From positions 22,809 through 86,808 of the forward strand of contig PBOB01000010.1 of the NCBI GenBank assembly GCA_002724185.1: a DNA stretch of 64,000 nt, written 5' to 3'. Both the position numbers and the translations under genes were made by a program. The first letter of the stretch is position 1; each line of letters starts with the position of its first letter. Positions 31,231 through 60,008 of the stretch are shown piece by piece. The notes beneath the pieces are model-generated. The model did no database searches and was not told the origin of the DNA. It was given only the letters and a program-made list of their open reading frames with translations. Origin of the DNA: Acidiferrobacteraceae bacterium (lineage in GTDB: Bacteria > Pseudomonadota > Gammaproteobacteria > Arenicellales > UBA868).

Positions 31231-33072
31231 ATGAACATACTTGGTATTTCTGCGTATTATCATGATTCTGCCGCTTGCCTTATTCGTGATGGTGAGATAG
31301 TTGGCGCAGCACAGGAAGAGCGATTTTCTAGAAAGAAGCATGATGCTAGATTTCCTAGCTATGCGATCCAATATTGTCTGGAAGAGGGTGGGGTCAAAGT
31401 ACAAGATTTAGATTTCATTGCGTTTTATGACAAGCCCTTTCTTAAGTTCGAGCGTTTATTAGAGACATATATTGCCACTACGCCGCGTGGATTCCAGTCT
31501 TTCGTAGCTGCTATGCCGATCTGGTTGAAAGAAAAGTTATATCTCAAGACGGTCTTGAAAAAAGAATTGATCAAGATTGATGGTTGTAGCAAAAAAGAGT
31601 TGCCACGATTGCTTTTTTCGGAGCACCATCAGTCACATGCAGCATCTGCGTTTTATCCAAGCCCGTTCCAGGATGCGGTAATACTTTGCATGGATGGTGT
31701 TGGCGAGTGGGCAACTACAACAGCTTGGAAAGGTTCCCAAAACCAGCTTGAACCTTTATGGGAGATAAATTTCCCTCATTCCTTGGGTCTTCTATATTCA
31801 GCATTTACTTATTTCACAGGGTTTAAAGTTAATTCTGGAGAATATAAGCTAATGGGTCTTGCGCCATATGGAACGCCAAAATATGTGGATCTAATAAAGG
31901 ACAACCTTATTGATATCAAATCAGATGGTTCGTTCCGATTGGAAATGCGTTACTTTGATTATGCGGTGGGTCTCCGGATGACGAATAGCAGGTTTGCGGA
32001 TTTATTCGGACATCCTGCTAGAACGCCAGAGTCTCCTCTAACGCAAGAAGAGATGGATATTGCGGCATCGATACAGGTTGTAACCGAAGAAGTGGTACTT
32101 AGAATTGCGACTACGCTGAACGAAGAAACTGGCTTTCAAAATCTTTGTCTAGCTGGTGGTGTTGCACTTAATTGCGTAGCGAACGGTCGACTACAGAGAG
32201 AAGGTCCTTTTGACAGGATCTGGATTCAACCAGCAGCTGGCGATGCGGGTGGCGCACTGGGTTGCGCGCTTGCTGCCTGGCATCAGCATCTAGAAAACCC
32301 ACGAACTATGGAGGATGACGGAGATAAAATGCACGGCGCATATCTCGGTCCGAGATTTACAGCAGATGAAATCATTTCTGTTCTAGACAATTTGGGTGCA
32401 AAGTATATTTGTATGGATGATGATTTATTGTTTGAAGAACTGGCCAAATGGCTTTCAGAAGGTAATGTTATAGGGTGGTTCCAGGGGCGTATGGAATTTG
32501 GTCCCCGCGCTCTAGGAGGCAGATCTATTCTAGGAGACCCTCGAAATTCTGAGATGCAGTCAACGATGAATTTAAAGATCAAGTATCGTGAGTCATTCCG
32601 GCCTTTTGCGCCGGCTATATTGGAAGAATCAGTTTCAGAATGGTTTGATCAACAGAATGAAAGTCCTTACATGTTAATGACGGCTGCTGTAAGGGAGAAC
32701 AAGCGACGGTTCATTGCTAGTACTGATGAACATCTATTTGGCATTGATCAACTTAAGTTAATAAGATCAGATATTCCCGCTGTAACTCATGTAGATTACT
32801 CTGCGCGGATACAGACTGTGCATCATGAGACTAATCCACGCTTCCACCAATTAATCAGCGCCTTCAACAAGAAAACAGGTTGCCCGGTGCTTGTAAATAC
32901 TTCATTTAATGTTAGGGGGGAGCCTATTGTGTGCACTCCGGCGGATGCTTATCGTTGCTTTATGAGGACGGAGATGGATTTTCTGGTAATAGAGAATGTT
33001 TTATTGACCAAGCACCAACAGCCAGAATGGTCAGAAATTGATGATTGGCAAAATGAGTTTGATCTAGATTGA
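31231..33072 (+). CDS. Carbamoyltransferase (NodU/CmcH family)
   Basis: 613 aa. N-terminus ILGISAYYHDSAACLIRDGEIVGAAQEERFSRKKHD, then GGVALNCVANG and a C-terminal TSFNVRGEPIVCTP motif. Confidence 0.9.
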   Translation: MNILGISAYYHDSAACLIRDGEIVGAAQEERFSRKKHDARFPSYAIQYCLEEGGVKVQDLDFIAFYDKPFLKFERLLETYIATTPRGFQSFVAAMPIWLKEKLYLKTVLKKELIKIDGCSKKELPRLLFSEHHQSHAASAFYPSPFQDAVILCMDGVGEWATTTAWKGSQNQLEPLWEINFPHSLGLLYSAFTYFTGFKVNSGEYKLMGLAPYGTPKYVDLIKDNLIDIKSDGSFRLEMRYFDYAVGLRMTNSRFADLFGHPARTPESPLTQEEMDIAASIQVVTEEVVLRIATTLNEETGFQNLCLAGGVALNCVANGRLQREGPFDRIWIQPAAGDAGGALGCALAAWHQHLENPRTMEDDGDKMHGAYLGPRFTADEIISVLDNLGAKYICMDDDLLFEELAKWLSEGNVIGWFQGRMEFGPRALGGRSILGDPRNSEMQSTMNLKIKYRESFRPFAPAILEESVSEWFDQQNESPYMLMTAAVRENKRRFIASTDEHLFGIDQLKLIRSDIPAVTHVDYSARIQTVHHETNPRFHQLISAFNKKTGCPVLVNTSFNVRGEPIVCTPADAYRCFMRTEMDFLVIENVLLTKHQQPEWSEIDDWQNEFDLD

Positions 33073-33100
33073 AAAATAGAACTAGCAAATATGAGAGTAT

Positions 33101-33511
33101 ATGATGAGAACACATATTCCAGATATAGATTCTAAAGGGTTACGTAATTTTGGTTATATATTTGGAGTAATCGTTATAGTATTGTTTGGGCTTGTGCTGC
33201 CCTTTTTATTTGGCAATAATTTGCCGTTATTACCATGGGTTATTGGTGGTATTTTTTTTATTTGGGCAAGTATATGGCCAAAAACTATAAAGCCTTTTTA
33301 TCGACTTTGGATGTCTTTTGGGGTCGTAATGAACTGGATTACTACGAGAATTGTCTTAGCAGCAGTCTTTTTTGTAGCGATGCTTCCGTTTGGAGTTATA
33401 TTTAAGATTCGTGGTAAAGATCCTTTGAATCGCAAGTGGGATGGCAAACTAATATCCTATCGGATACTCAGTGAAAAAGTTCGCGAAAAAAATATGGAGA
33501 AACCATTCTAA
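33101..33511 (+). CDS. SxtJ-like small membrane protein
   Basis: 136 aa with 3-4 hydrophobic helices, immediately downstream of the carbamoyltransferase. This is the gene order I recall for SxtJ-family proteins. The family call is from memory. Confidence 0.55.
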   Translation: MMRTHIPDIDSKGLRNFGYIFGVIVIVLFGLVLPFLFGNNLPLLPWVIGGIFFIWASIWPKTIKPFYRLWMSFGVVMNWITTRIVLAAVFFVAMLPFGVIFKIRGKDPLNRKWDGKLISYRILSEKVREKNMEKPF

Positions 33512-33663
33512 TGTTTGAGTTTTTAAGTGATCTGTGGAATTTTATGAGAGTTCGAAAGAAGTTTTGGCTGGCACCGATAGTTCTTGTTTTGCTTCTATTG
33601 GGATTACTGATCGTAGTGGCTGAGGGCACAGCTGTAGCACCTTTCATTTATACGATCTTTTAA
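33511..33663 (+). CDS. 50-aa single-helix membrane protein (DUF5989-like), not in the ORF track
   Basis: I translated it by hand: MFEFLSDLWNFMRVRKKFWLAPIVLVLLLLGLLIVVAEGTAVAPFIYTIF. Its ATG shares the A of the upstream TAA stop (TAATG coupling). It is below the 60-aa track cutoff. Confidence 0.55.
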   Translation: MFEFLSDLWNFMRVRKKFWLAPIVLVLLLLGLLIVVAEGTAVAPFIYTIF

Positions 33664-40062: not shown

Positions 40063-40929
40063 CTATTTTCGCCTCAGTTTCTTGATAATTGGTAGTTCAC
40101 TTTCGTAAACTCGTTTTTTGCCATCGCCCATCATTTCCTCAAGACCTCTTATGTATTTAACCATTCGTTGAAAGGCCATTGGTTCCAGCGATGCTGCTTG
40201 ATCTGATCCCCACATTGCTCTATCTAAAGTTAAATGCCGTTCGATTACGCAAGCACCTAGTACGGCAGCGGCAAAGCTTGGGATAAAGATGACTTCGTGA
40301 CCGGAATAGCCAATAGGCACCTGATAGTGCTGTTCTAGTGCAGCGATAGCTCTCAAATTTAGTTCTTTAGGCTCGGACGGATAAGTGCTAGTGCAGTGTA
40401 ATAGAACTAAGTCTTTCTTCCCAAGAATCTTAACTGCGTGGTCTATCTGAGCCATAGTACTCATACCGGTAGAAAGAATAATCGGCATAGGATAATTGCG
40501 ATGATGTTTTAATAGCCCATCGTCTGTTAAAGAAGCGGAGGCAATTTTAAAGAAAGTAGGCTGAAATTGTTGAATAAAGTCTACAGAGTCTTCATCCCAA
40601 CAGGATGCTGTCCAAATCATTCCCAATTCATTACAGTAGCTATTGATTTCAGTGTATTCGTCGATGCCAAACTCAAGCCCCCTTTTCAAATCTCCATTTT
40701 TTGTGCCAAAAGGGGATTCTCGATCCATAGCTAGTTCGTCAGCACTGTAAACTACATCTACGGTTCGTTTCTGAAACTTGACTGCATCAGCGCCACACTC
40801 TTTTGCTGCGGTTATCAATTTCTTCGCAAGTTCTAGGTTGCCGTTATGATTAATGCCAATTTCGGCGACTACAAATGTGCGACACCCAGGACCAATTTCG
40901 TGATCGCCAACATGTACACTTGTGATCAT
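40063..40929 (-). CDS. NeuB-family (sialic-acid-synthase-like) TIM-barrel enzyme lacking the SAF domain
   Basis: 288 aa. Segments FVVAEIGINHNGNLELAKKLITAAKECGADAVKFQKRT, ILSTGMST, LLHCTSTYPS and GYSGHE. The protein ends about 60 aa short of canonical NeuB/PseI, so it has no SAF domain. Confidence 0.75.
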   Translation of the reverse strand: MITSVHVGDHEIGPGCRTFVVAEIGINHNGNLELAKKLITAAKECGADAVKFQKRTVDVVYSADELAMDRESPFGTKNGDLKRGLEFGIDEYTEINSYCNELGMIWTASCWDEDSVDFIQQFQPTFFKIASASLTDDGLLKHHRNYPMPIILSTGMSTMAQIDHAVKILGKKDLVLLHCTSTYPSEPKELNLRAIAALEQHYQVPIGYSGHEVIFIPSFAAAVLGACVIERHLTLDRAMWGSDQAASLEPMAFQRMVKYIRGLEEMMGDGKKRVYESELPIIKKLRRK

Positions 40930-41399: not shown

Positions 41400-42491
41400 A
41401 TGTACAAAGTACTAATTTATGGAGCTGGATCAATTGGTAATCACCTATGTTTTGCATGTAGACAAAGAGGTTGGCATGTTGAGATGTTTGATGTAGATGC
41501 GGCCGCCTTAGATCGCACAAGAAAAGAAATTTATCCAACGCGGTACGGAGAATGGGATTCTGAGATACTGTTATCGGAATCTTTAGATAGTTCAAAACAT
41601 TATGATCTTATTATTGTCGGTACGCCACCAGATAGCCATGCGAATCTCGTAACGGATATACTAGCTAGCTATAGTCCACGAGTATTGCTAGTTGAAAAGC
41701 CTCTTTGCACGCCAAATCTAGATGGATTGGATGCAGTTGTGAAGGCGGGTAACGATTGTGACTCTCTTGTACTCGTTGGATATAATCACAATTTAACAAA
41801 GAATACTCAGCGTGCAGAAGTTATTTTGAATAAGGGAGACATTGGCATCCCGAAATCAATTCATGTTCGTTGGTTGGAGCATTGGGGAGGCATATTCAAT
41901 GCCCACCCATGGCTGGATGGTCCCGCTGATACCTATTTGGGTTATTTCCAGCGAGGTGGTGGGGCTTGCGCTGAGCATTCTCACGCGGTCAGTTTATGGC
42001 AGCACTTTGCAAACGTTCTAAAGGTCGGATGTGTTATCAACGTAACGGCGATTATGGATATCCACAAAGATGGCATTGTCGAGTATGATCAAACCGCGCA
42101 AATACTGTTGACTACTGAAAGCGGATTGATAGGATCTGTCATACAGGACGTGATTACCGAGCCCCCCCAAAAGACTATGCGGATTCAAGGCACGAAGGGA
42201 TATTTAGAATGGTACGCTAACTATGATGACTCTCACGATGCAATTATCTATAAACTTGATAATGAAGAGAGGTCTATAGAGATGTTTGAGAAAACACGAC
42301 CCGATGATTTTAGAGGGCAGATGGACCAGATAGCAGATTTACTGGCAGGTAAGCGACAACTAAAGCACATTAATGGCCTTCTCGAGGCAGCTAAGACTAT
42401 GGAAATTATTTCGGCAGCTCATGTTTCCCATAAGGTAGGCCATTCTGTTGATTTGCAAAACTTAGGCTGGCAGGATGTTCTTGTGCATTAA
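41400..42491 (+). CDS. Gfo/Idh/MocA-like NAD(P)-dependent oxidoreductase
   Basis: 363 aa with an N-terminal Rossmann motif LIYGAGSIGNH and the EKP motif (LLVEKPLC). Substrate is unknown. Confidence 0.6.
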   Translation: MYKVLIYGAGSIGNHLCFACRQRGWHVEMFDVDAAALDRTRKEIYPTRYGEWDSEILLSESLDSSKHYDLIIVGTPPDSHANLVTDILASYSPRVLLVEKPLCTPNLDGLDAVVKAGNDCDSLVLVGYNHNLTKNTQRAEVILNKGDIGIPKSIHVRWLEHWGGIFNAHPWLDGPADTYLGYFQRGGGACAEHSHAVSLWQHFANVLKVGCVINVTAIMDIHKDGIVEYDQTAQILLTTESGLIGSVIQDVITEPPQKTMRIQGTKGYLEWYANYDDSHDAIIYKLDNEERSIEMFEKTRPDDFRGQMDQIADLLAGKRQLKHINGLLEAAKTMEIISAAHVSHKVGHSVDLQNLGWQDVLVH

Positions 42492-42531
42492 TGCCAGCTC
42501 AAAATCATATAGTTAATTAAACTAGCAGCAT

Positions 42532-44037
42532 ATGAAAAAATTCGACTTTAACGATTTGTTCATTTTAGATCTCGCCAACAACCATCAGGGTGATACTGAT
42601 CATGCTAAAAACATAATTGATTCGCTTGCGAGTGTGGCGCGAGATGCACAGGTACGAGCTGCAATTAAGTTTCAATTTAGACAGTTAGAAACGTTCATTC
42701 ATCCCAATCATCAGAAAGATTCACAAGCAAAACATATACCAAGATTTATTGAGACTAGACTCGATATTGGCGCATATGCTGACTTGTTAGCGAGAGTTCG
42801 TGACCATGGGATGGTAGCCATGTGCACTCCTTTTGATGAAGAGTCTGTCGCATTAATTGATAAGATGGGTTTTGATGCTATTAAGGTTGCCAGTTGCAGT
42901 GTGACTGATAGACCCTTGCTAGAAGCTGTAGTATCTGTAGGTCTTCCAGTGGTTATTTCGACGGGTGGTGCAATGATAAGTGATATAGATAGGGTGGTTA
43001 ATTTGATGTCCACAAATAATATTCCTTTTGCGCTTGAGCATTGTGTTTCCATTTATCCTACTGAGATGGCCCAGTTACAACTCAACCAAATCACAGTGCT
43101 CCGGGAACGATACCCAGGAATACCAGTTGGATGGTCAACCCATGAAGATCCTGATGACACGATTACCGTCCAGTTGGCCTATGCTAAAGGTGCCGTGTTA
43201 TACGAGCGACATGTTGGTGTAGAAACAGAAAAATATAAACTCAATAAATATTCATCTACACCTACTCAAATTAAATCGTGGCTTTTGGCGCATCAATGCG
43301 CTGTAAAGCGTTGTGGGTCTTTACATCGTGGACCAGTGCAGATTGCAGAAGCAGAAGCGTTAATGTCACTAAAAAGGGGCGTTTTTGCGTCTCGTGATAT
43401 TGTTGCTGGCTCAGAAATTCAGCGAACAGACGTTTTTTTTGCTATGCCCGCCGAAAATGATGGACTTTTTACATCAGATTGGCAGGATGGCTATATCGCT
43501 GACAGGAACTATACAATCGGTCAGTCTATATCAAGTGAAGTCGCAAAATTTGATGAAACCGAAGACCAATTGATCGATAAAATTATGCTACAAGTTAGAG
43601 GCATGTTACATGTTGCAAGAATTGAGTTAGCTGATTCCAGCAAGATAGAAATATCGCACCATTATGGTCTTAGAAGATTTAGAGAGTTTGGGGCAGTAAT
43701 TATTGATGTAATAAATAGAGAGTATTGCAAGAAGTTAATTATTCAACTTCCGAGACAAAAGCATCCTTATCATTACCACAAGCGCAAGGAAGAAACGTTC
43801 CAAGTCTTATATGGTGAGTTAGAAGTTGAAAAGAACGGAAGCCCCAAGATTCTACAACCTGGAGATATTTTCCTAGTTGAACCGGAAGCGTGGCATAAAT
43901 TTTCTACTCAAGATGGCGTTATATTTGAGGAGATTTCAACGACACATTTCAATGATGATTCATTTTATGAGGATCAGGCAATTGCAAGACTACCTCGGGA
44001 AAAAAGAAAAACTCTGATTCAGAACTGGGAGTTCTAG
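42532..44037 (+). CDS. Tri-domain protein: NeuB-like barrel, SAF domain and a C-terminal cupin
   Basis: 501 aa. The NeuB-like part has LDLANNHQGDTDHAKNII...AAIKFQFR, VISTGGA, EHCVSIYPT and GWSTHE. The SAF-like part (RGVFASRDIVAGSEIQRTDVFFAMP) is at about nt 43370-43540. The cupin part (HPYHYHKRKEETFQVLYGELEV...GDIFLVEPEAWHKF) is at about nt 43690-44000. Confidence 0.7.
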   Translation: MKKFDFNDLFILDLANNHQGDTDHAKNIIDSLASVARDAQVRAAIKFQFRQLETFIHPNHQKDSQAKHIPRFIETRLDIGAYADLLARVRDHGMVAMCTPFDEESVALIDKMGFDAIKVASCSVTDRPLLEAVVSVGLPVVISTGGAMISDIDRVVNLMSTNNIPFALEHCVSIYPTEMAQLQLNQITVLRERYPGIPVGWSTHEDPDDTITVQLAYAKGAVLYERHVGVETEKYKLNKYSSTPTQIKSWLLAHQCAVKRCGSLHRGPVQIAEAEALMSLKRGVFASRDIVAGSEIQRTDVFFAMPAENDGLFTSDWQDGYIADRNYTIGQSISSEVAKFDETEDQLIDKIMLQVRGMLHVARIELADSSKIEISHHYGLRRFREFGAVIIDVINREYCKKLIIQLPRQKHPYHYHKRKEETFQVLYGELEVEKNGSPKILQPGDIFLVEPEAWHKFSTQDGVIFEEISTTHFNDDSFYEDQAIARLPREKRKTLIQNWEF

Positions 44038-44045
44038 TACTGCAA

Positions 44046-44696
44046 GTGACAACAATAAAGGCAGTTATTCTTGATTTTGATGGTACATTGGTAGATTCAA
44101 ACATGATCAAGATGAAGTCGTTTTTTGATGCCACAGAAAAAATCTCAGGGGTATCGGACTACCTAAAAGACTTACTAGATGCACAAAATGGTCTAAACCG
44201 ATATGAAATATTTGATCGAGTTACTGCTTGGTTAGGTAGAGCTGATGAGATGCCTTCATTATCTAAGGAGTTGTCAGATAGATATTCAGGCATATGTCAG
44301 TTAGCAATTAATAATTCTAAAGAGATACGGGGTGCAAGCCCTTTGCTTGCCCAGTTACAAAATACAGGCATGAAAGTATTTATCTGCTCAGCTACCCCCG
44401 ATGAGCATCTTTTGCCAATTGTTCAACATCGAGAATGGCATAGTTTGGTCGAGGGGGTATACGGTGTGCCACCATCGAAATTCGAACGTATCAAACAGTT
44501 AATTGGAAAATATGGATATTCTAGAAGAGAAGTTATGATGATTGGAGATCAGCAGTCAGATTATTCAATAGCTTTGGCATTGGGCTGTCGCTTTATCGGT
44601 GTAGGGAATGACCAACAGAAGTGGGATAATGAATATTTCCCAAAATTAATCGTAGAGGACTTAAGGGAAGTACCAGAACTTCTTTACTTAGATTAG
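44046..44696 (+). CDS. HAD-superfamily hydrolase (probable sugar-phosphate phosphatase)
   Basis: 216 aa with a GTG start. HAD motif I is ILDFDGTLVDS, motif II has a Ser/Thr in ICSAT, and motif IV is MIGDQQSD. Confidence 0.7.
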   Translation: MTTIKAVILDFDGTLVDSNMIKMKSFFDATEKISGVSDYLKDLLDAQNGLNRYEIFDRVTAWLGRADEMPSLSKELSDRYSGICQLAINNSKEIRGASPLLAQLQNTGMKVFICSATPDEHLLPIVQHREWHSLVEGVYGVPPSKFERIKQLIGKYGYSRREVMMIGDQQSDYSIALALGCRFIGVGNDQQKWDNEYFPKLIVEDLREVPELLYLD

Positions 44697-44729
44697 AGAT
44701 TTGTCAGTTTATGGTAACGAGGCGTTCAT

Positions 44730-45434
44730 ATGTACAAGAATCGTAGAATTCTAGCAATTGTACCCGCCCGTGGTGGCAGCAAAGGTATTAAGCTAAAAAA
44801 TCTGATTTCTGTTGGTGGCGTCTCTTTAATTAGCAGAGTAGGGCTCGTCATTCAGCAATTACCATTTCTTGATAGAGCAATAATTTCAACCGACCATAGT
44901 GGCATTGCAGAGACTGCAAGAAGTGCTGGCATAGAAGCGCCGTTTACCCGGCCGGAGTCATTGTCTGGCGACACAATATCTGATGTTGAAGTGCTTTCCC
45001 ACGCATTATTGGAAGCAGAAAAATCAGAAAAATATCAGTTTGACGTTATAGTCATGCTGCAGCCTACTAGTCCGTTTCGAACTCCTGAGATAGTAATTGA
45101 AGCATGTGATAAATTAATCGAAGGTAATTATGATTCAGTAGTGACAGTCAGCAGAACTGATTCTAAGGGGCATCCGTTAAAGCAGTTTGTTGTTAAGGAA
45201 AATACCCTCAGATATTATGATGAACGGGGCAAGGGAATTATAGCGCGTCAACAGCTGGATCCAGTTTATCACCGGAATGGTCTTGCTTATGTGATGACCC
45301 GAGATTGTTTGTTGGTTCAAAAGACGGTTATTGGAAGTCATACTTTCCCGATAGTAGCGGAAGAATATGTCCCGAACATAGATTCATACGATGACATATA
45401 CTATGCTGAATATCTGCTAAGTAGGCAGACCTAA
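44730..45434 (+). CDS. Acylneuraminate (CMP-nonulosonate) cytidylyltransferase family protein
   Basis: 234 aa with N-terminus ILAIVPARGGSKGIKLKNL and the segment LQPTSPFR. Confidence 0.85.
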   Translation: MYKNRRILAIVPARGGSKGIKLKNLISVGGVSLISRVGLVIQQLPFLDRAIISTDHSGIAETARSAGIEAPFTRPESLSGDTISDVEVLSHALLEAEKSEKYQFDVIVMLQPTSPFRTPEIVIEACDKLIEGNYDSVVTVSRTDSKGHPLKQFVVKENTLRYYDERGKGIIARQQLDPVYHRNGLAYVMTRDCLLVQKTVIGSHTFPIVAEEYVPNIDSYDDIYYAEYLLSRQT

Positions 45435-45483: not shown

Positions 45484-46992
45484 TTGGGACAGCGATTGCA
45501 GACAGTCTCTGTATGGATACTAAGATTAGCAATAGGCTTATGGTCGCTGGTATTCCTCTATTACCTTCAGCTTCAACGTGACAATTTAATAGCGAGCAAT
45601 TTTACGCTATATATCACGGTAGCGATTCTGATTGTAGTTTTTGTATCTGTTTTGGTTAGTGGGATGATCAAAGTTAGACACAGAAGCAATGCGACATTGG
45701 CTATTTTTTCAGTTTTCATTGCTTTATATCTAGCTGAGGCGATGCATTTGTCACTTTTTTACTATCCAGGATTTCCAGAATATAGTCCACCTATATCAAT
45801 CGATCCTGATGTGCGTCTTAAAGCCTATCAGCAGAATGTAAATCTCGACAAAAGAAACCAGTTTGAAGTAGTTAGAGATTTAAGATTGAGAGGTATCGAT
45901 GGGTACCCAGCGTTCTTGGTAAATAACAGGAAAGAATGGGGGGAGTTGTGGTTAACCGATAAGAGAATATGGCCACTTGGTGGTCACTCAAATAAGACGA
46001 CAGTACATTGTAATGAAAGTGGGTATTGGGCAAAGTATCAGAGTGATGAGAGAGGCTTTAATAATCCTCTAGGAAGTTGGGAAATGGACGAAGCTTCACA
46101 GATCGATCTATTACTCCTGGGCGATTCATTTGTTCATGGCGCATGTGTTAATGGTGGTGACGACTATGGAGGTCTTTTGAGATCAGAAGAAAAAAGAGTA
46201 GTTAATCTAGGCCAACGTGGAAATGGGCCGATATTAAATTTTGCTGGTCTCGTCGAGTATGGACTGGAACTGAAACCAAGAAAGATACTTTGGTTTTACA
46301 CAGAGAATAACGACTTAATAAACTTGCGTGCAGAAGCCAGTAATGTTTTCCTTAGAAACTATCTCACGCCTGGCTTTAGTCAAGACCTTCGAAATCGTGT
46401 GGCAGAAGTTGATCATACAGTTAATATCATGACAAATAAGCATTGGAACCGAATAGATGAGCTGCAAGAAGTAGAGCCGATTGATATGATTCGTTATTGG
46501 GTTAGTTTGCGCTCACTCCGAAAAAGATTCGGACTTGAGGCTGCGCCTCAATCAGAGGGAGACACACAGTACAAAGTTGATAAGGCGATAGCATTATTGA
46601 ACGAGGGACGATCTACTGCAGACTTTAATGATGTTGATGCGTCTTCTTCGAAGAAACAGGCTCAGAACGTTGACACATATTTGGCTGAGCAAGAACTTTT
46701 TGTATTGATTCTTCAAAAAGCAATCAATCTGGCTACTCGATGGAATGGTGAAGTTGTATTCGTGTATGTTCCAGGAGGCGATCGATTTATGGACAGGTTG
46801 CAGTCCCCACTTAATCAAAAAGATACTGTTATTGATCGAGTGAGAGATCTTGGTGTTGATGTGATTGACCTAACCGAGGCATTCAACAAATTAAGTGACC
46901 CAATGACTATGTTTCCATTTGGTAGAGGAGGTCACTATAACTCTCTAGGATATGCATACACTTCTAAGCATATCCTTCGTAACTTAGAGTGA
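45484..46992 (+). CDS. Membrane-anchored SGNH/GDSL-like protein (possible glycan O-acyl transferase or esterase)
   Basis: 502 aa with a TTG start and 3-4 N-terminal helices. SGNH-like blocks: LLLGDSFVHG (block I), GQRGNGP (block II), YTENNDL (block III) and GGHYNSLGY near the C-terminus. Confidence 0.45.
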   Translation: MGQRLQTVSVWILRLAIGLWSLVFLYYLQLQRDNLIASNFTLYITVAILIVVFVSVLVSGMIKVRHRSNATLAIFSVFIALYLAEAMHLSLFYYPGFPEYSPPISIDPDVRLKAYQQNVNLDKRNQFEVVRDLRLRGIDGYPAFLVNNRKEWGELWLTDKRIWPLGGHSNKTTVHCNESGYWAKYQSDERGFNNPLGSWEMDEASQIDLLLLGDSFVHGACVNGGDDYGGLLRSEEKRVVNLGQRGNGPILNFAGLVEYGLELKPRKILWFYTENNDLINLRAEASNVFLRNYLTPGFSQDLRNRVAEVDHTVNIMTNKHWNRIDELQEVEPIDMIRYWVSLRSLRKRFGLEAAPQSEGDTQYKVDKAIALLNEGRSTADFNDVDASSSKKQAQNVDTYLAEQELFVLILQKAINLATRWNGEVVFVYVPGGDRFMDRLQSPLNQKDTVIDRVRDLGVDVIDLTEAFNKLSDPMTMFPFGRGGHYNSLGYAYTSKHILRNLE

Positions 46993-47027: not shown

Positions 47028-48938
47028 CTAATTGTTTTCTAGCCAAGATTGAAACATTACGATAGACCAAAGTAGTTCACTGTGCTGCGAGGCACCATCT
47101 TTGTGGGCACGCAGTATTGCTGATATAGTGGTAGGATCAAGAAATCCTTGATTTTTTATATTAGCGCTACTGAGCAGATCGCCAGCCCAGTCCTTAAGTG
47201 ATTGTCGGAGCCACGCATCTAACGGCACTGAAAATCCAGTTTTTGGCTGAGACCAGAGTTCATCTGGGAGATATTTCCGAAGTATCTGCCTTAACATCCA
47301 TTTAGTTTGAAAGTTTCGAATCTTTCTCTGTTTCGGCTGAGACCAGCTAAACTCGACAAGCCGATGATCAATCAGGGGTACTCGTACCTCTAGCCCAAAG
47401 GCCATACTACAGCGATCTACTTTGGTTAGGACATCGTCTGGTAAATAACGAATTGTATCAAGATATTGCATACGCTCCTGAAAATTAAGACCAGACTCTA
47501 TGGGTTGGATTCGTCCAGAATCTACCGCTAGAGATTGCAAAACAAGTTGTTGAGGAAAAGCTTCGACGGATGTCAAAGATTGATAGAGATCTTCAAACGA
47601 GTCTTCTTTTAGTGCGCGATGAAGCTTTTTGATTTTTTCCTGTGGTCGTCGCAATTTCAGTTGTTTAGATAGCAAAGGAAATAGATTGGTAGGGGTCATA
47701 GAGTCCAGCATGCCAACCAATTGATTTATAGCTTGTCGCGCATATGCTGGACTGTTGTTCACTATCGATAGAAGATTTGCCCATCGATAACGTTCGTATC
47801 CGCCAAACACCTCATCACCACCATCTCCGGAAAGGGCTACCTTGACTTCAGCACTTGCAAGTTTTGAAATTATTAATGATGGTATCTGCGAAGAATCAGA
47901 GAATGGTTCATCAAAATGATGGGTAAGGGCAGGAATCGTCTTAAGGACATCCTCTGATGATACGTGAATAGTCGTATGTTGCGTTCCCAAGTATTCTGCT
48001 ATTTTATTGGCATTTGTAGATTCATCAAAGTCAGCATCGCCAAAGCCAACTGAGAATGTTCTTATAGAGTCGTGCAGATATTCTTGGCTGATCGCTGTAA
48101 CTAGTGAACTATCTATGCCACCAGATAATAGAGTTCCTATAGGTACGTCAGCGATCGTTCTGATCGCAATCGCGTCTTTTAGAAGCTCATGAAGTTTCTC
48201 AACAGCTTCTACATCTGAATCTAATGACATAGATCGGTGGCGTATGTGATCTTGGAGGTTCCAATAGCATGATATGTGAACTGGTTGACCTGGCTTCCAT
48301 ACGAGAAAATGCCCAGGGAGTAATTTCTTAACATCCTTATATATACTTCGAGGTGCGGGAACATAACGATATTGAAAAAATAGGTTTAAAGAATCCTCGT
48401 CGATAGAGTTTGTAATATCCGGTACTATTTTCATGGCCTTTATTTCTGATGCAAATGCCAGATCTCCAGTGGTTCTCTGACCCCAGTAAAGTGGCTTTAT
48501 TCCTAATCGATCGCGCGCCAGGAAAAGTTTTCTTTCAGTGCGATCCCATAATGCAAATGCAAACATACCGGTAAGTTTAGGAAGCATCCTTTCTATACCC
48601 CAGACAGATAACCCCTCAAGTAAGACCTCGGTGTCTGAATTGCTTCGAAAGGAGCAGCCTTCTGAAATTAGTTGGTCTTTGAGTTTTTGATAGTTATAGA
48701 TTTCGCCATTGAAAGATATAATATATCTTCCGTTGCTCGACGCCATAGGTTGATGACCATCTTGGGTTAGATCGATCACTGAAAGACGTCTGTGGCCGAT
48801 AGCCAATGGTATATTGCTGTCAATCCAAACACCTTCATCATCTGGGCCTCTATGAGAAAGTGATCGAACCATGCGCTGACAGCAGGCCTTGAGCTCACCA
48901 TTCAAGGTATCGTGATAGATTCCGACAATCCCACACAT
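47028..48938 (-). CDS. Asparagine synthase (glutamine-hydrolysing) family amidotransferase
   Basis: 636 aa. N-terminal nucleophile MCGIVG, and the PP-loop segment LSGGIDSS. The glycan-cluster context suggests sugar-carboxylate amidation rather than Asn synthesis. Confidence 0.88.
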   Translation of the reverse strand: MCGIVGIYHDTLNGELKACCQRMVRSLSHRGPDDEGVWIDSNIPLAIGHRRLSVIDLTQDGHQPMASSNGRYIISFNGEIYNYQKLKDQLISEGCSFRSNSDTEVLLEGLSVWGIERMLPKLTGMFAFALWDRTERKLFLARDRLGIKPLYWGQRTTGDLAFASEIKAMKIVPDITNSIDEDSLNLFFQYRYVPAPRSIYKDVKKLLPGHFLVWKPGQPVHISCYWNLQDHIRHRSMSLDSDVEAVEKLHELLKDAIAIRTIADVPIGTLLSGGIDSSLVTAISQEYLHDSIRTFSVGFGDADFDESTNANKIAEYLGTQHTTIHVSSEDVLKTIPALTHHFDEPFSDSSQIPSLIISKLASAEVKVALSGDGGDEVFGGYERYRWANLLSIVNNSPAYARQAINQLVGMLDSMTPTNLFPLLSKQLKLRRPQEKIKKLHRALKEDSFEDLYQSLTSVEAFPQQLVLQSLAVDSGRIQPIESGLNFQERMQYLDTIRYLPDDVLTKVDRCSMAFGLEVRVPLIDHRLVEFSWSQPKQRKIRNFQTKWMLRQILRKYLPDELWSQPKTGFSVPLDAWLRQSLKDWAGDLLSSANIKNQGFLDPTTISAILRAHKDGASQHSELLWSIVMFQSWLENN

Positions 48939-49100: not shown

Positions 49101-49973
49101 TTATTCGCTGTTAAACCTATGATCATCGTTCTTTCTGAGATGAATAATATTGGGGTCACTTTCGCAAGCATCTAAAAACGCCGTATGATTTTTTGAAAAA
49201 TTTTCATCAATGTATTGATTCATATTTTCATCTATATAAAACTTTTCGGAATTAAGTCTTTGTATGAATCGAAATAAAAGTGGCATTTGTGGATCGTTAT
49301 TTTTTCGAAATATTTTTCCTGGATACATTGTTTTCAGCGCCTTTCTCCAAGCCCTATCTAACAGCATAGATTTTGGCACCAGTGATTGGTTTGTCCATAT
49401 ATTGGTTAGGTCTGCTGAGTGATGACGTACACCTAGAGCTGTATAAAGTTCGGCTGTTAATCCAGAGGAGTCGTGCGCTAAATACTCATAGTCAATAACA
49501 ATTATGCGGGCCGTGGGGCAAGCCTCCCTAAATCGTTGTAACATGATATCCAAATTTACAAGCTCAAGATAAGCATCCCGATCCTTATTGAAGGACTGCT
49601 CAAAAGTAATTTTCCTTTCAGACGGTGTAGCGAGCATCCTAGTATAATTATACCAAGAGAAAAGTATAGATTTTGGACTTCTATATGATAATAGGTAGGT
49701 TGCCTGCTGACCCAATCTAGAAAAGTGTTCCAGTGCAATCGGATGATTAGTGTACTCTCCCCATTCCAAGGTTTTTTGTCCGGGATTTAGGTGAGGGAAG
49801 AAACGATTATAGCTTCCATCTAATTGGTCAGTAATCCAATAATTAGTAATTCTTGGATTTGCTAGTGCAATATCTGGATGTTGATCTAGTAATCCAGCAA
49901 TGAATGAGGTGCCAGTTTTTTTCATCCCAATCCCAATAAAATCTGGAAAGCTAAAATGGTTAGGTTTCATCAA
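49101..49973 (-). CDS. Sulfotransferase family protein
   Basis: 290 aa with a 5'-PSB-like loop GIGMKKTGTSF and a 3'-PB-like segment LLSYRSPKSILFS. Confidence 0.68.
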   Translation of the reverse strand: MMKPNHFSFPDFIGIGMKKTGTSFIAGLLDQHPDIALANPRITNYWITDQLDGSYNRFFPHLNPGQKTLEWGEYTNHPIALEHFSRLGQQATYLLSYRSPKSILFSWYNYTRMLATPSERKITFEQSFNKDRDAYLELVNLDIMLQRFREACPTARIIVIDYEYLAHDSSGLTAELYTALGVRHHSADLTNIWTNQSLVPKSMLLDRAWRKALKTMYPGKIFRKNNDPQMPLLFRFIQRLNSEKFYIDENMNQYIDENFSKNHTAFLDACESDPNIIHLRKNDDHRFNSE

Positions 49974-52921: not shown

Positions 52922-53545
52922 ATGGCGATGGGAACAATAGTTGGTGTTATTGAATATGGAGCAGGTAATCTATTTTCGGTTGAGACAATGCTGTCGAAAA
53001 TAGGTGCCGAATTCTTTGTGTCATCTGAACCCAAAGAATTGAATAAAGCTACGCACCTTATCTTACCCGGAGTGGGTAGTTTTAATCGCGCGATGGATAA
53101 TTTGGATGCGCATGGTTTGTCTGCTATGTTGGTAGACATCGTAGAAAAGAAGCGAAAGAAATTATTAGGAATCTGTTTAGGCATGCAATTGCTAGCAACC
53201 TACGGACAAGAGGGTGGAGAAAGAAAGGGATTAGGCTTAGTTGGCGGCACTATAGCCAAACTTCCTCCTGCTAGGGATGTGCGGGTGCCACATATTGGAT
53301 GGAATTCCCTACATTTTGGTTCAATGACTCCAAAAAGTTTTTCGGATATCTCAGAAGGTCAAACGGTATACTTTAATCATAGCTATTATTTTGAGTTAGA
53401 GGAACAAATTCCCCACGTCTATACCGAGCATGGTGTACATAAGATAATTGCTGCGTTTGAGAAAGATACCGTTCTTGGTCTGCAATTTCATCCGGAAAAA
53501 AGTCAGGTTGTTGGACAGAAGATTCTAAGTTCATTTTTGAGCTGA
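52922..53545 (+). CDS. HisH-like glutamine amidotransferase paralog (WbuY-type)
   Basis: 207 aa. Segments GAGNLFSV, the nucleophile context GICLGMQLL, and QFHPEKS. It lies in the glycan cluster, next to a HisF-like gene and a PP-loop amidotransferase. Confidence 0.85.
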   Translation: MAMGTIVGVIEYGAGNLFSVETMLSKIGAEFFVSSEPKELNKATHLILPGVGSFNRAMDNLDAHGLSAMLVDIVEKKRKKLLGICLGMQLLATYGQEGGERKGLGLVGGTIAKLPPARDVRVPHIGWNSLHFGSMTPKSFSDISEGQTVYFNHSYYFELEEQIPHVYTEHGVHKIIAAFEKDTVLGLQFHPEKSQVVGQKILSSFLS

Positions 53546-53553
53546 TTTATCGT

Positions 53554-54306
53554 TTGCTGAAGATAAGAATAATTCCTGTATTATTACTTAGAGGCAATTC
53601 CGTCGTGAAGCCTGTAGGTTTTCAAGAGGATCGTGTTGTTGGCGATGCTATAGCAAGTGTTAAGGTTTTTTCAAAGCGCTTCGCGGATGAAATGATAATC
53701 ATTGACATTGATGCTACCAAGAATGGCCATCGAGATTTGACTCTAATAAAAAAATTATCCCGCGAGTGTGTTATGCCATTGACGTTGGGCGGCGGTATCA
53801 GTGATCTAATGGGCGCGGAGGATTTGTTTGCGTCAGGAGCCGACAAAGTGTCAATAAATTCGTCTTTTTATAGTAATCCGTCTTTGATGAGTACCATTGC
53901 AGCACGCTTTGGTAGTCAGGCAGTGGTTTTTTCCTTAGATATTAAAATTGTCGATTCTATTAGCTATGCAGTATCTCATTGTGGTTCGGTCCTAGAATCA
54001 ATTACAGGATTAGACGCCGCCAAAAAAGCTGCTGATTATGGAGCGGGAGAGATTCTCTTAAACAGAGTAGACAAGGATGGGACAATGACAGGCTATGATA
54101 CTGATCTAATTAGAAAAATTTCTGGCAGTATAGAGATCCCGCTAGTTGCCGTAGGAGGGTGTGGTAGTGGTGCCGATTGTGTTAAAGCTGTTAAAGCCGG
54201 AGCATCTGCTGTCGCCGCCGGAAGTATTTTCTTTTGGGTGGGAGAAAGTATTATGTCTATAAAAGAGCATATGAATGCGGAGGGCCTTGAAGTTCGCTTA
54301 TTATGA
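53554..54306 (+). CDS. HisF-like barrel paralog (WbuZ-type)
   Basis: 250 aa with a TTG start. N-terminus IRIIPVLLLRGNSVVKP, where core HisF has [14 protein letters not shown]. It also has LGGGI and AVGGCG. Confidence 0.85.
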   Translation: MLKIRIIPVLLLRGNSVVKPVGFQEDRVVGDAIASVKVFSKRFADEMIIIDIDATKNGHRDLTLIKKLSRECVMPLTLGGGISDLMGAEDLFASGADKVSINSSFYSNPSLMSTIAARFGSQAVVFSLDIKIVDSISYAVSHCGSVLESITGLDAAKKAADYGAGEILLNRVDKDGTMTGYDTDLIRKISGSIEIPLVAVGGCGSGADCVKAVKAGASAVAAGSIFFWVGESIMSIKEHMNAEGLEVRLL

Positions 54307-55436: not shown

Positions 55437-55606
55437 GAAATTCTATTAATCATTGGAGCCTTATTGATGTATGACTAACAGAGCCATAACAAATGTTACC
55501 CAGAGGCCCCTTTTCTACCTAAGGTACACTGTTTAGATTCTTAGATCAGAACAAATCATGCGCTCTAATTCTACCAACATAAATCAACCACTCATGCAGT
55601 GTTTTA

Positions 55607-57259: not shown

Positions 57260-57342
57260 TATTAGCAGTGTTAGAGTATTACTCTGTTGTGGTATATGTA
57301 GATTGTGATAATCGCATTGTGAATATTTAATAGGAATAGAAT

Positions 57343-59797: not shown

Positions 59798-59801
59798 ATC
59801 T

Positions 59802-60008
59802 ATGGATAATGCTACTAGAGAAATGTTGGATATGAAGCTGTTGGATGAAATTCAAGAAGTTCGCTCAAAAAATAATATTAATTGGATGGATGTTTTGCGT
59901 CTAGCGTTTAGGCATTCTCCAGACGAGGCACGAGAGTTAGTTGGGAGAATTAACTCGGATGATCAAAGGATTTCTGAACTGTTTGCACAGCTAGCACAGA
60001 AGTCTTAG
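59802..60008 (+). CDS. Hypothetical 68-aa helical protein
   Basis: Tightly packed between pseF and the formyltransferase, with 4-nt and 11-nt gaps. I recognise no motif, and it has no ACP DSL motif. Confidence 0.35.
   Translation: MDNATREMLDMKLLDEIQEVRSKNNINWMDVLRLAFRHSPDEARELVGRINSDDQRISELFAQLAQKS

Follow-up and report, generated by a model that had tools for sequence, protein, structure and literature searches.

What would a NeuB-type synthase do with a cupin domain fused to it, and what would it make together with the three enzymes encoded beside it? The question is raised by four co-directional genes on the forward strand of the 64,000-nucleotide stretch of DNA analyzed here (the window). 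They encode a Gfo/Idh/MocA-family NAD(P) oxidoreductase (41400–42491; 363 amino acids; Pfam GFO_IDH_MocA plus a C3 domain), a 501-amino acid fusion of NeuB, SAF-like, and cupin domains (42532–44037), a HAD-superfamily phosphatase of the capped HAD_2 type (44046–44696; 216 amino acids; Pfam HAD_2 and Hydrolase), and a CMP-nonulosonate-type cytidylyltransferase (44730–45434; 234 amino acids; Pfam CTP_transf_3), with intergenic gaps of 40, 8, and 33 nt. A 288-amino acid NeuB paralog is encoded divergently on the reverse strand (40063–40929); Pfam finds only a NeuB domain in it, as a sequence-only reading of this DNA had claimed, and ORF and Pfam analysis likewise returned the coordinates, strands, and domains given there for the other four ORFs. 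We propose that the four-gene cassette very probably builds and activates an acidic, sialic-acid-like sugar by means of an isomerase–synthase fusion, and we regard it as a good lead for experiment.

The Cassette Is a Conserved Module

The search for the same architecture and neighborhood that the sequence-only reading had called for showed that the cassette recurs in many environmental bacteria, with one cultured host, Desulfonatronum thiodismutans. Across 86 independent loci, a homolog of the oxidoreductase adjoins the fusion on its upstream side in 77, so that no other gene accompanies the fusion as regularly; the phosphatase is found in 58/86 (mostly between the fusion and the cytidylyltransferase) and the cytidylyltransferase in at least 53/86. 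The most frequent order 3′ of the fusion is phosphatase followed by cytidylyltransferase, and because the same order is found in dozens of unrelated contigs, the four-gene arrangement goes well beyond anything expected by chance, and the cassette is a genuine conserved module. Of the 58 loci with enough downstream sequence, about 22 lack the phosphatase gene; sugar phosphatases are known to be redundant (PMC6200933), and this loss in roughly one-third of loci is in keeping with that. Conservation with the cassette does not extend to any NDP-sugar genes, and a TIGR04396-family protein is encoded nearby in many loci. The short divergent NeuB has a homolog in none of the other loci (0/86) and is a neighbor in this genome only, outside the conserved cassette.

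Domain Architecture and Active Sites of the Fusion

The fusion begins with a NeuB-type PEP-condensing TIM barrel (residues 1–250; 42532–43281, forward strand; Pfam NeuB at residues 43–246, 138 bits), continues with a SAF/AFP-like domain and helical linker (residues 251–345; 43282–43566, forward strand), and ends with a cupin resembling D-lyxose/D-mannose isomerases (residues 346–501; 43567–44037, forward strand; Cupin_2 and Lyx_isomer). Pfam thus bears out the NeuB and cupin parts of the tri-domain architecture proposed earlier, whereas its SAF match of 19 bits falls under the cut-off of 21. The presence of a SAF-like region is nevertheless backed by sequence and modeling: the TIGR03569 alignment reaches residue 330, and the AF2 model of the fusion superposes on PDB entry 3G8R over 330 columns at 1.4 Å, the SAF-like region lying on the C-terminal domain of 3G8R and the barrel giving a TM-score of 0.95 (rmsd 1.4 Å; Foldseek). 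This region is the least conserved part of the fusion (mean identity 38%), whereas the cupin is the best conserved of the three domains (71%).

Among 127 fusion members, the equivalents of NmNeuB residues K53, Q55, T110, K129, S132, S154, Y186, S213, H215, E234, and H236 are invariant and the position of E25 is occupied by Asp; the PEP/metal site of the barrel is intact, a point that the sequence-only reading had proposed to check for both this site and that of the cupin. All 127 members replace E134 by Ser and D247 by Asn, and the N-acetyl-contacting Arg (R314), which is Met in the fusion, is found in none (0/127); these differences point to a sugar that is not acetamido-substituted. The fusion scores far under the cut-offs of the equivalog models (130 against 400 for NeuB and 116 against 340 for PseI; NCBIfam). 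The barrel belongs to a clade distinct from every characterized NulO synthase, to which it scores 46–86 bits. The fusion has in common with the mannose-6-P-specific Kdn-9-P synthase of P. parvum the residues R50 (in K-F-Q-x-R) and S123, which NmNeuB and PseI lack. The sequence-only reading had implied a closer tie to the Kdn-9-P route than the comparison supports: this validated synthase matches the short divergent NeuB end to end at 35% identity (147 bits) but the fusion barrel at only 24% (46 bits), and because it is far nearer to the short protein, Kdn is not specifically indicated as the product.

In the cupin, Cupin_2 is matched at residues 407–458 (40.6 bits) and Lyx_isomer partially, over profile positions 151–198 of 222 (26.9 bits). 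The best PDB sequence matches are 7NZO and 2Y0O, and the latter is also the first cupin match by structure (Foldseek). Seven of the eight active-site residues of the D-lyxose/D-mannose isomerase TsLI are retained, with K62, H75, H77, K86, E88, H143, and E156 corresponding to invariant fusion residues K401, H414, H416, K419, E421, H455, and E467; H414, H416, E421, and H455 are the putative metal ligands. The claimed HxH...E...H pattern is present as HYH...KEE...WHKF. The domain is like D-lyxose/D-mannose isomerases and has its metal and substrate residues intact, consistent with the isomerase type suggested for it beforehand. Both this clade and its sister clade carry Lys/Arg residues on either side of the metal His where free-sugar D-lyxose isomerases have Trp, and these added residues suggest an anionic group on the substrate.

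Partner Enzymes

The phosphatase matches HAD_2 at 58.6 bits, has the expected DxDxT motif (DFDGT, residues 10–14), and keeps motifs I–IV in 51 cassette homologs. Its earlier comparison with a Kdn-9-P-type phosphatase is weaker than implied: it is a capped HAD_2 protein whose best PDB match scores 24 bits, and no characterized ulosonate phosphatase was matched. NCBIfam matches are far under their cut-offs, the neighbors being small sugar- or acid-phosphate phosphatases of the capped HAD-IA group. The cytidylyltransferase matches CTP_transf_3 (74 bits) and, among PDB entries, CMP-Neu5Ac synthetases (84 and 76 bits) ahead of KdsB (25 bits); it scores 112.7 bits against the NCBIfam PseF model, under the cut-off of 205.7, and at most 51 bits against KdsB models. 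Judged by these scores it is of the CMP-sialic-acid type, in agreement with its first assignment.

Both the N- and C-terminal GFO_IDH_MocA domains of the oxidoreductase score above the Pfam cut-off (35–36 bits), and EKP and GGGAxxEHSH motifs are kept in 64 homologs. The nearest folds to its AF2 model (pLDDT 95) are sugar secondary-alcohol dehydrogenases (TM 0.73–0.81; Foldseek), many of them equally good neighbors at 14–19% identity; they include C3/C4 sugar dehydrogenases and the sialic-acid enzyme YjhC.

Other Nonulosonate Genes in the Window

A separate Pse module, passed over by the sequence-only reading, lies 8–16 kb downstream of the cassette, with its own synthase and cytidylyltransferase: PseI (60601–61659), the third NeuB of the window, and PseF (59108–59797), both over the NCBIfam cut-offs. 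They are accompanied by PseC, a Pse-associated methylase, WbuX, and HisH, all over cut-off, and by a WbuZ match of 244 bits, under the 300-bit cut-off. The absence of canonical entry enzymes noted earlier was confirmed, since neither Epimerase_2 (NeuC/LegG type) nor Polysacc_synt_2/4,6-dehydratase (PseB/LegB type) was found in window ORFs of at least 150 amino acids, in the open stretch at the window end, or within 10 kb past it, and no PseG-type gene was found in the window or just past its end; the window does, however, contain the PseC/PseF/PseI module.

Proposed Pathway and Alternatives

With a probability of roughly 55%, we read the cassette as a self-contained operon that starts from a ketose phosphate of central metabolism and ends with a non-aminated 3-deoxy-2-ulosonic acid in CMP-activated form, a member of the Kdn-like group of sialic acids. 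Domain identities, intact catalytic residues, and gene linkage are demonstrated for the cassette; we infer the order of steps, the substrates, their phosphorylation state, and the product. The cupin, as a Mn/Zn-type aldose–ketose isomerase, would convert a ketose (phosphate) into a manno- or lyxo-configured aldose (phosphate), for example fructose-6-P into mannose-6-P; the barrel of the same polypeptide would join this aldose to PEP, conceivably after the direct transfer between domains that the sequence-only reading had suggested, giving a ulosonate (phosphate); the phosphatase would take off the terminal phosphate; and the cytidylyltransferase would form the CMP-sugar for use by a nearby transferase, the TIGR04396-family protein being a candidate in many loci. 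The oxidoreductase would act once with NAD(P), oxidizing or reducing its substrate at a secondary hydroxyl. It would either re-set a stereocenter or leave the sugar or ulosonate with a keto group, whereby the product would differ from plain Kdn, or it would supply the ketose precursor. These steps would parallel those of the Kdo pathway (KdsD, KdsA, KdsC, KdsB) one by one, although the cassette proteins are unrelated or only distantly related to those enzymes, and the cassette would have one redox step more than Kdo or Kdn logic. A phosphorylated intermediate is suggested by the operon-embedded phosphatase with motifs I–IV, by R50 and S123, and by the cupin Lys/Arg; a C9 sialic-acid-like product is suggested by cytidylyltransferase scores that favor CMP-Neu5Ac synthetase and PseF over KdsB; and action of the oxidoreductase on a sugar hydroxyl is suggested by its structural neighbors and by EpaA/EpaB and AciE, documented oxidoreductases that re-set NulO stereocenters after assembly (PMC12053666). 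Points against this reading are the loci that lack the phosphatase, the want of an informative relative for that enzyme, the low identity of the barrel to the validated Kdn-9-P synthase, the many equally good structural neighbors of the oxidoreductase, the use of free sugars by characterized D-lyxose isomerases, and the different gene context of the sister clade.

The cupin's closest family would also fit a route through free sugars, given that all its characterized members, the D-lyxose isomerases included, take unphosphorylated D-lyxose, D-mannose, or D-fructose (PMC8378251). The phosphatase, whose HAD-IA neighbors would suit this role, would first free a ketose (for example, F6P would yield fructose and Xu5P xylulose), and the cupin and then the barrel would use free sugars, the latter joining mannose or lyxose to PEP without a ulosonate phosphate ever forming; this resembles bacterial NeuB acting on free ManNAc, and free sugars are the substrates of classical bacterial NeuB and PseI (PMC6200933, Table 2). 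We consider this route distinctly unlikely because the phosphatase gene lies 3′ of the synthase in most loci, R50 and S123 are common to a mannose-6-P-specific synthase, the cupin Lys/Arg is missing from free-sugar isomerases, and freeing a hexose just for condensation would be wasteful compared with known phosphorylated routes. The constancy of the oxidoreductase directly upstream of the fusion raises another, still unlikely, reading, in which it makes a ketose or ulose by oxidizing a polyol- or aldose phosphate, the cupin turns this into an unusual aldose, and the barrel yields a non-Kdn backbone or stereochemistry (a C8 sugar, a C10 sugar, or a ulosonic acid of the epi or keto type). Structural neighbors that yield C3/C4 keto-sugars or oxidize inositols and aldoses, the distinct barrel clade, and the existence of bacterial CMP-activated ulosonic acids that are of unknown structure and have longer backbones (bioRxiv 10.64898/2026.04.20.719630) agree with it; the lyxose/mannose isomerase residue set kept in the cupin fits ordinary ketoses, and the cytidylyltransferase resembles a standard CMP-sialate synthetase, both of which count against it.

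We find it quite improbable that the fusion is a second PseI/LegI/NeuB-type synthase in an accessory Pse, Leg, or Neu5Ac branch, acting on a 2-acetamido or 2,4-diacetamido sugar whose enzymes are encoded elsewhere. The database label of the fusion, the downstream module with its PseC, PseF, PseI, methylase, and amidotransferase genes, and the 4–5 of 86 loci where PseC/PseI adjoin the cassette speak for such a branch, but at least 80 of the 86 loci are without a Pse/Leg gene, no genes of the NeuC, LegG, PseB, or PseG types were found in the window or just past it, the equivalog scores and the missing N-acetyl-contacting Arg disagree, and the Pse module already has its own synthase and cytidylyltransferase. 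Least probable of all is a cupin that is no isomerase, serving instead as a sugar- or metal-sensing regulatory domain, in oligomerization, or in some other reaction, with the barrel drawing its aldose from general metabolism. The diversity of cupin functions, the partial Lyx_isomer match, and a first metal His replaced in the sister clade would allow this; it is opposed by the position of the cupin as the best-conserved domain of the fusion and by the invariance there of seven of the eight residues that serve catalysis or contact the substrate in a D-lyxose isomerase of known crystal structure.

The Fusion beyond the Cassette

The sequence-only reading had known of no characterized NeuB–cupin fusion, and we found no functional study of any; the architecture is, however, neither rare nor unseen, being carried by thousands of database proteins annotated "sialic acid synthase". 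Homologs include proteins of Chromobacterium violaceum, Azoarcus, and Rhodocyclus, and the crystal structure 3G8R is the truncated N-terminus (the NeuB–SAF part) of a Chromobacterium homolog. In the sister clade (Chromobacterium, Azoarcus), the fusion genes are surrounded by genes for NDP-6-deoxyhexoses and adjoin none that encodes a Gfo, HAD, or CTP_transf_3 protein; because of this different context, the fusion as such is not bound to a sugar-phosphate route. The first metal His of the cupin is Gln in this clade, a change that need not mean loss of function, because Gln-His-Glu-His is also a known metal site of phosphomannose isomerases.

Organization and domain architecture of the cassette

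The cassette is composed of four genes on the forward strand: a Gfo/Idh/MocA oxidoreductase (hereafter Gfo; 41400-42491), a 501-aa fusion protein with a NeuB barrel (aa 1-250), a SAF-like domain and linker (aa 251-345), and a cupin domain (aa 346-501) (42532-44037), a HAD phosphatase (44046-44696), and a cytidylyltransferase (44730-45434). The ORF list agrees with an earlier, sequence-only reading in which these genes were described as co-directional and tightly spaced (the intergenic gaps are 40, 8, and 33 nt), and it contains the divergent second NeuB gene of that reading at 40063-40929 on the reverse strand, which encodes a 288-aa paralog without a SAF domain (hereafter the short NeuB). Pfam and NCBIfam profile searches uphold the domain types assigned to all four proteins, and the DxDxT motif attributed to the phosphatase is DFDGT at aa 10-14 of a HAD_2 hydrolase.

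The tri-domain architecture of the fusion is likewise borne out. The NeuB model (PF03102) matches aa 43-246 with 137.7 bits (cut-off 22.1), Cupin_2 matches aa 407-458 with 40.6 bits, and Lyx_isomer (PF07385) gives a partial match of 26.9 bits that covers profile positions 151-198 of 222. The Pfam SAF score of 19 bits is below the cut-off of 21; however, the AF2 model of the fusion (pLDDT 90.9) fits PDB 3G8R over 330 columns at 1.4 A with a TM score of 0.95, and based on this superposition we regard the SAF-like domain, as modeled, as genuine despite its weak Pfam score. A hydrolyzing UDP-GlcNAc 2-epimerase (NeuC/LegG type) and a 4,6-dehydratase (PseB/LegB type) had been reported as missing, and indeed neither is encoded by the sizeable ORFs of the window or in the 10 kb past its end. 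In total, the locus encodes three NeuB paralogs and two cytidylyltransferases. A promoter and terminator scan and an Rfam search returned nothing exceeding background.

Active sites of the fusion protein

We mapped the barrel to the numbering of Neisseria meningitidis NeuB (NmNeuB), using the 1XUU sequence, and compared 127 family members. The equivalents of NmNeuB K53, Q55, T110, K129, S132, S154, Y186, S213, H215, E234, and H236 are invariant. We take H215 and H236 to be the metal pair of NmNeuB, K53, K129, S132, S154, S213, and T110 to be PEP-binding, and E234 to be catalytic; every PEP and metal residue is thus retained in all 127 members. The sugar site is altered family-wide: E134 is replaced by Ser and D247 by Asn in 127 of 127 sequences, E25 is replaced by Asp, and the position of R314, the SAF-domain arginine that contacts the N-acetyl group in NmNeuB, is occupied by Met, Ile, Ala, or Phe and never by Arg. 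The fusion resembles NeuB-family structures in Foldseek comparisons (TM 0.78-0.95) and misses the NCBIfam equivalogs for both NeuB (TIGR03569, 130.1 bits, cut-off 399.65) and PseI (TIGR03586, 116.5 bits, cut-off 340.25). Mean identity is highest in the cupin (71%), followed by the barrel (59%) and the SAF/linker region (38%).

The HxH...E...H metal pattern noticed earlier in the cupin corresponds to H414, H416, E421, and H455, which are invariant and align with H75, H77, E88, and H143 of the Thermofilum D-lyxose isomerase (TsLI). The proposed kinship with D-lyxose/D-mannose isomerases also stands, given that the best PDB sequence matches are 7NZO and 2Y0O and that 2Y0O is the first cupin retrieved by Foldseek. 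The active site of TsLI consists of K62, H75, H77, K86, E88, H143, E156, and D163 (PMC8378251), and seven of these eight residues align in sequence with the invariant K401, H414, H416, K419, E421, H455, and E467; in the same sequence-based alignment D163 falls on N474, and an invariant D476 lies two residues further. The conservation of these seven residues is strong evidence, at the level of sequence, that the predicted cupin would be a working aldose-ketose isomerase with lyxo/manno specificity. Two lysines, K410 and K456, lie beside the metal site at positions occupied by Ile and Trp in free-sugar isomerases, which hints that the cupin substrate may carry an anionic group.

Oxidoreductase, phosphatase, and cytidylyltransferase

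Gfo matches the N- and C-terminal Pfam domains of its family above their cut-offs, retains the GAGSIG, EKP, and GGGAxxEHSH (acid-His) motifs, and has a confident AF2 model of the Gfo type. Its structural neighbors (Foldseek TM 0.73-0.81) all oxidize secondary alcohols of sugars and include C3 enzymes, inositol dehydrogenases, and YjhC, which acts on C4 of sialic acid; neither a PDB profile search nor AF2 modeling followed by Foldseek singled out a specific nearest neighbor. The search of the HAD protein against the PDB gave no informative match. The cytidylyltransferase matches CTP_transf_3 with 74 bits, and its best curated model is PseF, at 112.7 bits under a cut-off of 205.7. Its earlier description as an enzyme of the CMP-nonulosonate type is supported by a score of 84 bits to CMP-Neu5Ac synthetase versus 25 bits to KdsB. 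Given that this protein is clearly of the CMP-sialate type, its sequence favors a C9, sialic-acid-like product of the cassette.

Conservation of the cassette

A Tara Oceans scaffold and an Acidiferrobacteraceae MAG each encode a protein identical to the window fusion, and the best 120 database matches of the fusion are all full-length proteins of about 500 aa with NeuB and Cupin_2 domains and 54-65% identity. We searched with the window proteins 86 independent loci that were gathered via exact-protein look-ups and a metagenome scan queried with an alignment. The fusion belongs to a large family, and the cassette partners recur among these loci, which are mostly short metagenomic contigs, so that a partner missing from one of them often says little. 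The most constant of the partners is Gfo, which has a homolog in 77 of the 86 loci; of the 67 loci that have space for it, at least 60 carry it directly upstream of the fusion. Homologs of the HAD protein (58 of 86 loci) mostly lie between the fusion and the cytidylyltransferase, which has homologs in at least 53 of 86 loci, and HAD followed by cytidylyltransferase is the commonest downstream order. Catalytic motifs are kept in 64 Gfo, 51 HAD, and 44 cytidylyltransferase homologs, the last retaining both PxRGGSKG and QPTSP. The hosts comprise Gammaproteobacteria, Desulfobacterota, Moduliflexus, and Verrucomicrobiota, and include the cultured species Desulfonatronum thiodismutans.

Two accessory genes recur with the cassette. 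One encodes a candidate transferase, a TIGR04396 "surface carbohydrate biosynthesis protein" that scores 291-389 bits (cut-off 125) and occurs in at least 21 loci, and the other a SAM methyltransferase (about 20 loci). Several genes of the window were considered as module members and rejected: the short NeuB, the membrane/SGNH-like protein at 45484, and the sulfotransferase accompany the cassette in 0 of 86 loci, and the AsnB-like amidotransferase does so in only 5 of 86. A tblastn search of 72,556 plasmids found no match covering at least 80% of the fusion and returned only ordinary NeuB/PseI genes.

Two further observations concern the fusion and its cupin. An outlier fusion of 495 aa (locus L079, 7016-8503) has 7 kb of flanking sequence on each side without a homolog of Gfo, HAD, or the cytidylyltransferase and without the neighbors of the sister clade described below, and may represent a third context. 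Proteins of 162-177 aa (e.g., P0378, P0407, P0431, and P0490) align with the cupin domain over its full length (40-52% identity) and may, judging by this similarity, be standalone versions of the isomerase.

A sister clade with a different gene neighborhood

Fusions of the window type (clade A) have a sister clade (clade B), whose members from Chromobacterium, Azoarcus, Rhodocyclus, and Aromatoleum are 39-45% identical to the window fusion and whose cupin has Q-x-H where clade A has H-x-H. Clade B includes the protein of PDB 3G8R, a 350-residue structural genomics entry from Chromobacterium violaceum deposited as "probable spore coat polysaccharide biosynthesis protein E" (SpsE). This structure was considered as an unfused relative for a Rosetta-stone argument and set aside, since the full-length protein has 495 aa with NeuB, SAF, and Cupin_2 domains and the crystal is of a truncation without the cupin. 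The full-length protein is 41% identical to the window fusion from end to end and has the same sugar-site pattern of Ser, Asn, and a non-Arg residue.

In the two clade B loci (Chromobacterium violaceum, L090 6846-18234; Azoarcus sp. KH32C, L091 6751-19122), the fusion is encoded in an operon with a sugar-1-P nucleotidyltransferase, a 4,6-dehydratase, an E1/RfbH-like DegT protein, a ThDP enzyme, a C-methyltransferase, a NUDIX protein, a radical SAM protein, and an epimerase, and in Azoarcus the operon adjoins flagellin. The operon appears to be uncharacterized, and it resembles a pathway that would supply flagellin glycosylation with an ulosonic acid that is branched or deoxygenated. Neither Gfo, HAD, nor CTP_transf_3 is adjacent to the fusion in these two loci, and none of the clade B neighbor genes accompanies the clade A fusion. 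Given that the two clades sit in different gene contexts, we posit that the fusion is a reusable unit employed with two precursor supplies; and because no NDP-sugar genes are conserved with clade A, its precursor must come from central metabolism.

Relationship to known ulosonic acid pathways

The validated Kdn-9-P synthase of P. parvum is a 312-aa enzyme that is strictly specific for Man-6-P (PMC6200933; sequence from the supplement). In comparisons with this enzyme the short NeuB is the closest (35% identity end to end, 147 bits), followed by NmNeuB as the reference (29%, 94 bits), the PseI-like protein of the window (26%, 78 bits), and the fusion (24%, 46 bits). The fusion is therefore placed outside the characterized Kdn-9-P synthase clade, and if there is a classical Kdn-9-P/NANS-type enzyme in the window, these similarities suggest that it would be the short NeuB, which may be a candidate sugar-phosphate-dependent synthase in its own right. 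The fusion and the P. parvum enzyme share R50, the invariant arginine of K-F-Q-x-R, and a serine (S123) at the E134 position, two sugar-site features found in neither NmNeuB nor PseI that hint, indirectly, at Man-6-P as a possible substrate. The sequence-only reading had linked the cassette to the phosphorylated Kdn route; this link holds for the HAD and CTP_transf_3 genes, which are co-linear with the synthase in most loci, but not for the synthase, which is not orthologous.

Like the Kdn pathway of B. thetaiotaomicron (BT1713-BT1715) and P. parvum, the cassette would combine a NeuB-family enzyme that uses PEP and a non-aminated sugar phosphate with a HAD phosphatase and a CTP_transf_3 protein (PMC6200933); unlike the cassette, the Kdn routes summarized there include neither an isomerase nor an oxidoreductase. 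The P. parvum synthase also lacks the SAF and cupin domains that the fusion carries. The HAD protein of the cassette is of the capped HAD_2 type, unlike the BT1713 phosphatase, which we take to be of the KdsC-like type.

The Kdo pathway offers a second parallel. It proceeds from a ketose phosphate to an aldose phosphate (KdsD isomerase), which is condensed with PEP (KdsA synthase), dephosphorylated (KdsC phosphatase), and activated with CMP (KdsB, the CMP-Kdo synthetase), the same four-step chemistry that we propose for the cassette, and KDO8P and DAH7P synthases are the next structural neighbors of the fusion barrel in Foldseek. However, the protein families differ or are distant: the cassette has a cupin rather than a SIS isomerase, NeuB rather than KdsA, a capped HAD rather than KdsC, a cytidylyltransferase much nearer to CMP-sialate synthetases than to KdsB, and an extra oxidoreductase. 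The window also encodes a housekeeping, KdsD-like SIS+CBS protein of the arabinose-5-P isomerase type (17209-18231, reverse strand) that adjoins lptC, lptA, and lptB, and the organism therefore has an ordinary Kdo pathway besides the cassette.

The individual parts of the fusion have relatives as well. The D-lyxose/D-mannose isomerases (TsLI, 7NZO; B. subtilis YdaE, 2Y0O; E. coli O157 Z5688) share with its cupin the fold, the H-H-E-H metal site, and the substrate-binding Lys, Lys, and Glu, but they are standalone homodimers that act on free sugars in catabolism, whereas the cupin is fused to a synthase and is low in sequence similarity to them (42 bits). Leptospira interrogans has a NeuB-phosphatase fusion (PMC3438082), a precedent for joining an adapter enzyme of a phosphorylated NulO route to a NeuB-family synthase; there the partner is a phosphatase that acts after condensation, whereas the partner in the window fusion is a predicted isomerase that would act before it, and the phosphatase is encoded by a separate gene.

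Proposed pathway and alternatives

Based on these comparisons, we propose, with a probability of roughly 0.55, that the cassette reproduces the Kdo/Kdn logic with non-orthologous proteins. The cupin would convert a ketose phosphate to a manno- or lyxo-configured aldose phosphate, the NeuB barrel would condense that aldose phosphate with PEP, the HAD protein would remove the phosphate from the condensation product, the cytidylyltransferase would form the CMP-sugar, and Gfo would add one redox step. EpaA/EpaB and AciE are known examples of oxidoreductases that re-set stereocentres of a NulO once it has been assembled (PMC12053666). Given that Gfo is the most constant partner, the product is by inference probably not plain Kdn. 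More tentatively, and at somewhat short of even odds, we suggest that it is an undescribed CMP-ulosonic acid, either an epi- or keto-Kdn set by Gfo or a C8 or C10 acid from lyxose-5-P or heptose-7-P, with the aldose phosphate, a transient intermediate, passed between the two active sites of the fusion.

The place of Gfo and the state of the sugar when it meets the cupin are where the alternatives diverge. Gfo and the cupin could act together as a precursor pair that yields an unusual backbone, and the position of Gfo directly upstream of the fusion is compatible with this reading, which we consider unlikely. Ranked after it, and also unlikely, is a route in which the HAD protein acts first and the later steps use a free sugar, as the D-lyxose/D-mannose isomerases do; the lysines flanking the metal site of the cupin hint instead at an anionic group on its substrate. 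We see only a small chance that the cassette has an accessory role in Pse/Leg synthesis: a pseudaminic-acid module lies in the same window, but the Pse/Leg entry enzymes (PseB/LegB; PseG/LegG/NeuC) and an aminotransferase are not in the cassette, and none is conserved with it among the 86 loci. Least probable, to the point that we give it little weight, is a non-catalytic cupin, a reading that must account for seven invariant active-site residues.

Novelty and significance

A full-text literature search, with most subscription papers outside its coverage, returned no paper joining "sialic acid synthase" with "cupin domain" or "lyxose isomerase", in agreement with the earlier statement that no characterized NeuB-cupin fusion was known. 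Papers with both NeuB and cupin were not relevant, and a large NeuB phylogeny paper makes no mention of fusions or isomerases. The parts are already known, namely the phosphorylated Kdn route, the Leptospira NeuB-phosphatase fusion, and standalone D-lyxose isomerases; what appears to be uncharacterized is their combination, in which a distinct clade of NeuB is fused to an isomerase and has Gfo as its obligatory partner. If the more tentative reading, that of an undescribed CMP-ulosonic acid, is true, clades A and B would form a third major branch of the NeuB family, beside Neu/Leg/Pse and Kdn-9-P/NANS, with a wide distribution among environmental bacteria.

The surface glycans of bacteria are capped by nonulosonic acids and related keto-deoxy acids, which influence the biofilm matrix as well as recognition by phages and by the immune system. 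In mass-spectrometry surveys, environmental biomass is rich in Kdn and in ulosonic acids that are still unassigned, Kdn ranks second in abundance among the NulOs of granular-sludge EPS, and, according to the authors, Kdn synthase genes are indistinguishable from Neu5Ac synthase genes (PMC10483923). The NeuB-SAF-cupin fusion, now mislabeled "sialic acid synthase", is a distinctive and easily spotted marker of a compact gene set across several phyla. Assignment of its product would give a new predictive annotation marker, would possibly account for some of the Kdn or unknown-ulosonate signal in environmental samples, and would offer a one-polypeptide isomerase-synthase for the chemo-enzymatic preparation of sialic-acid analogs from cheap ketose phosphates. 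The proposal is directly testable in cultured Desulfonatronum thiodismutans and, for clade B, in Chromobacterium violaceum, for which a partial crystal structure exists. The SugarBase preprint describes unknown CMP-ulosonic acids from Magnetospirillum (bioRxiv 10.64898/2026.04.20.719630); these are amino sugars and are unconnected to the cassette.

Other genes in the window

A separate pseudaminic-acid module, missed in the sequence-only reading, extends over 52922-61659 on the forward strand. It encodes HisH (52922), WbuZ (53554), the amidotransferase WbuX (54303), a Pse-associated methylase (57343), PseC (57933), PseF (59108), a formyltransferase (60020), and PseI (60601), all of which score above their NCBIfam cut-offs except WbuZ and the formyltransferase. 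Neither PseB, PseG, nor PseH is encoded in the window or the next 10 kb, and the Pse entry steps are therefore encoded elsewhere or non-canonical. Within the module, an ORF for a 550-aa protein (55607-57259, forward strand) has no family match, and the 502-aa product of an ORF directly 3' of the cytidylyltransferase gene (45484-46992, forward strand) has only a weak, partial GDSL/SGNH match.

A carbamoyltransferase gene followed by small SxtJ-like and DUF5989 ORFs (31231-33660, forward strand) precedes the cassette by about 8 kb. In Candidatus Moduliflexus (L001, 9624-11342), a carbamoyltransferase gene sits between the fusion and the cytidylyltransferase, and this insertion into the cassette suggests that some lineages O-carbamoylate the sugar. 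The AsnB-type amidotransferase has an XrtA/PEP-CTERM amidotransferase as its best model, at 571 bits under a cut-off of 817. Amidotransferases of this type and sulfotransferases recur by the cassette in several distant genomes (window, 47028-48938 and 49101-49973, both on the reverse strand; L089, 809-5261; L001, 628-1482), which hints at amidated and sulfated glycans.
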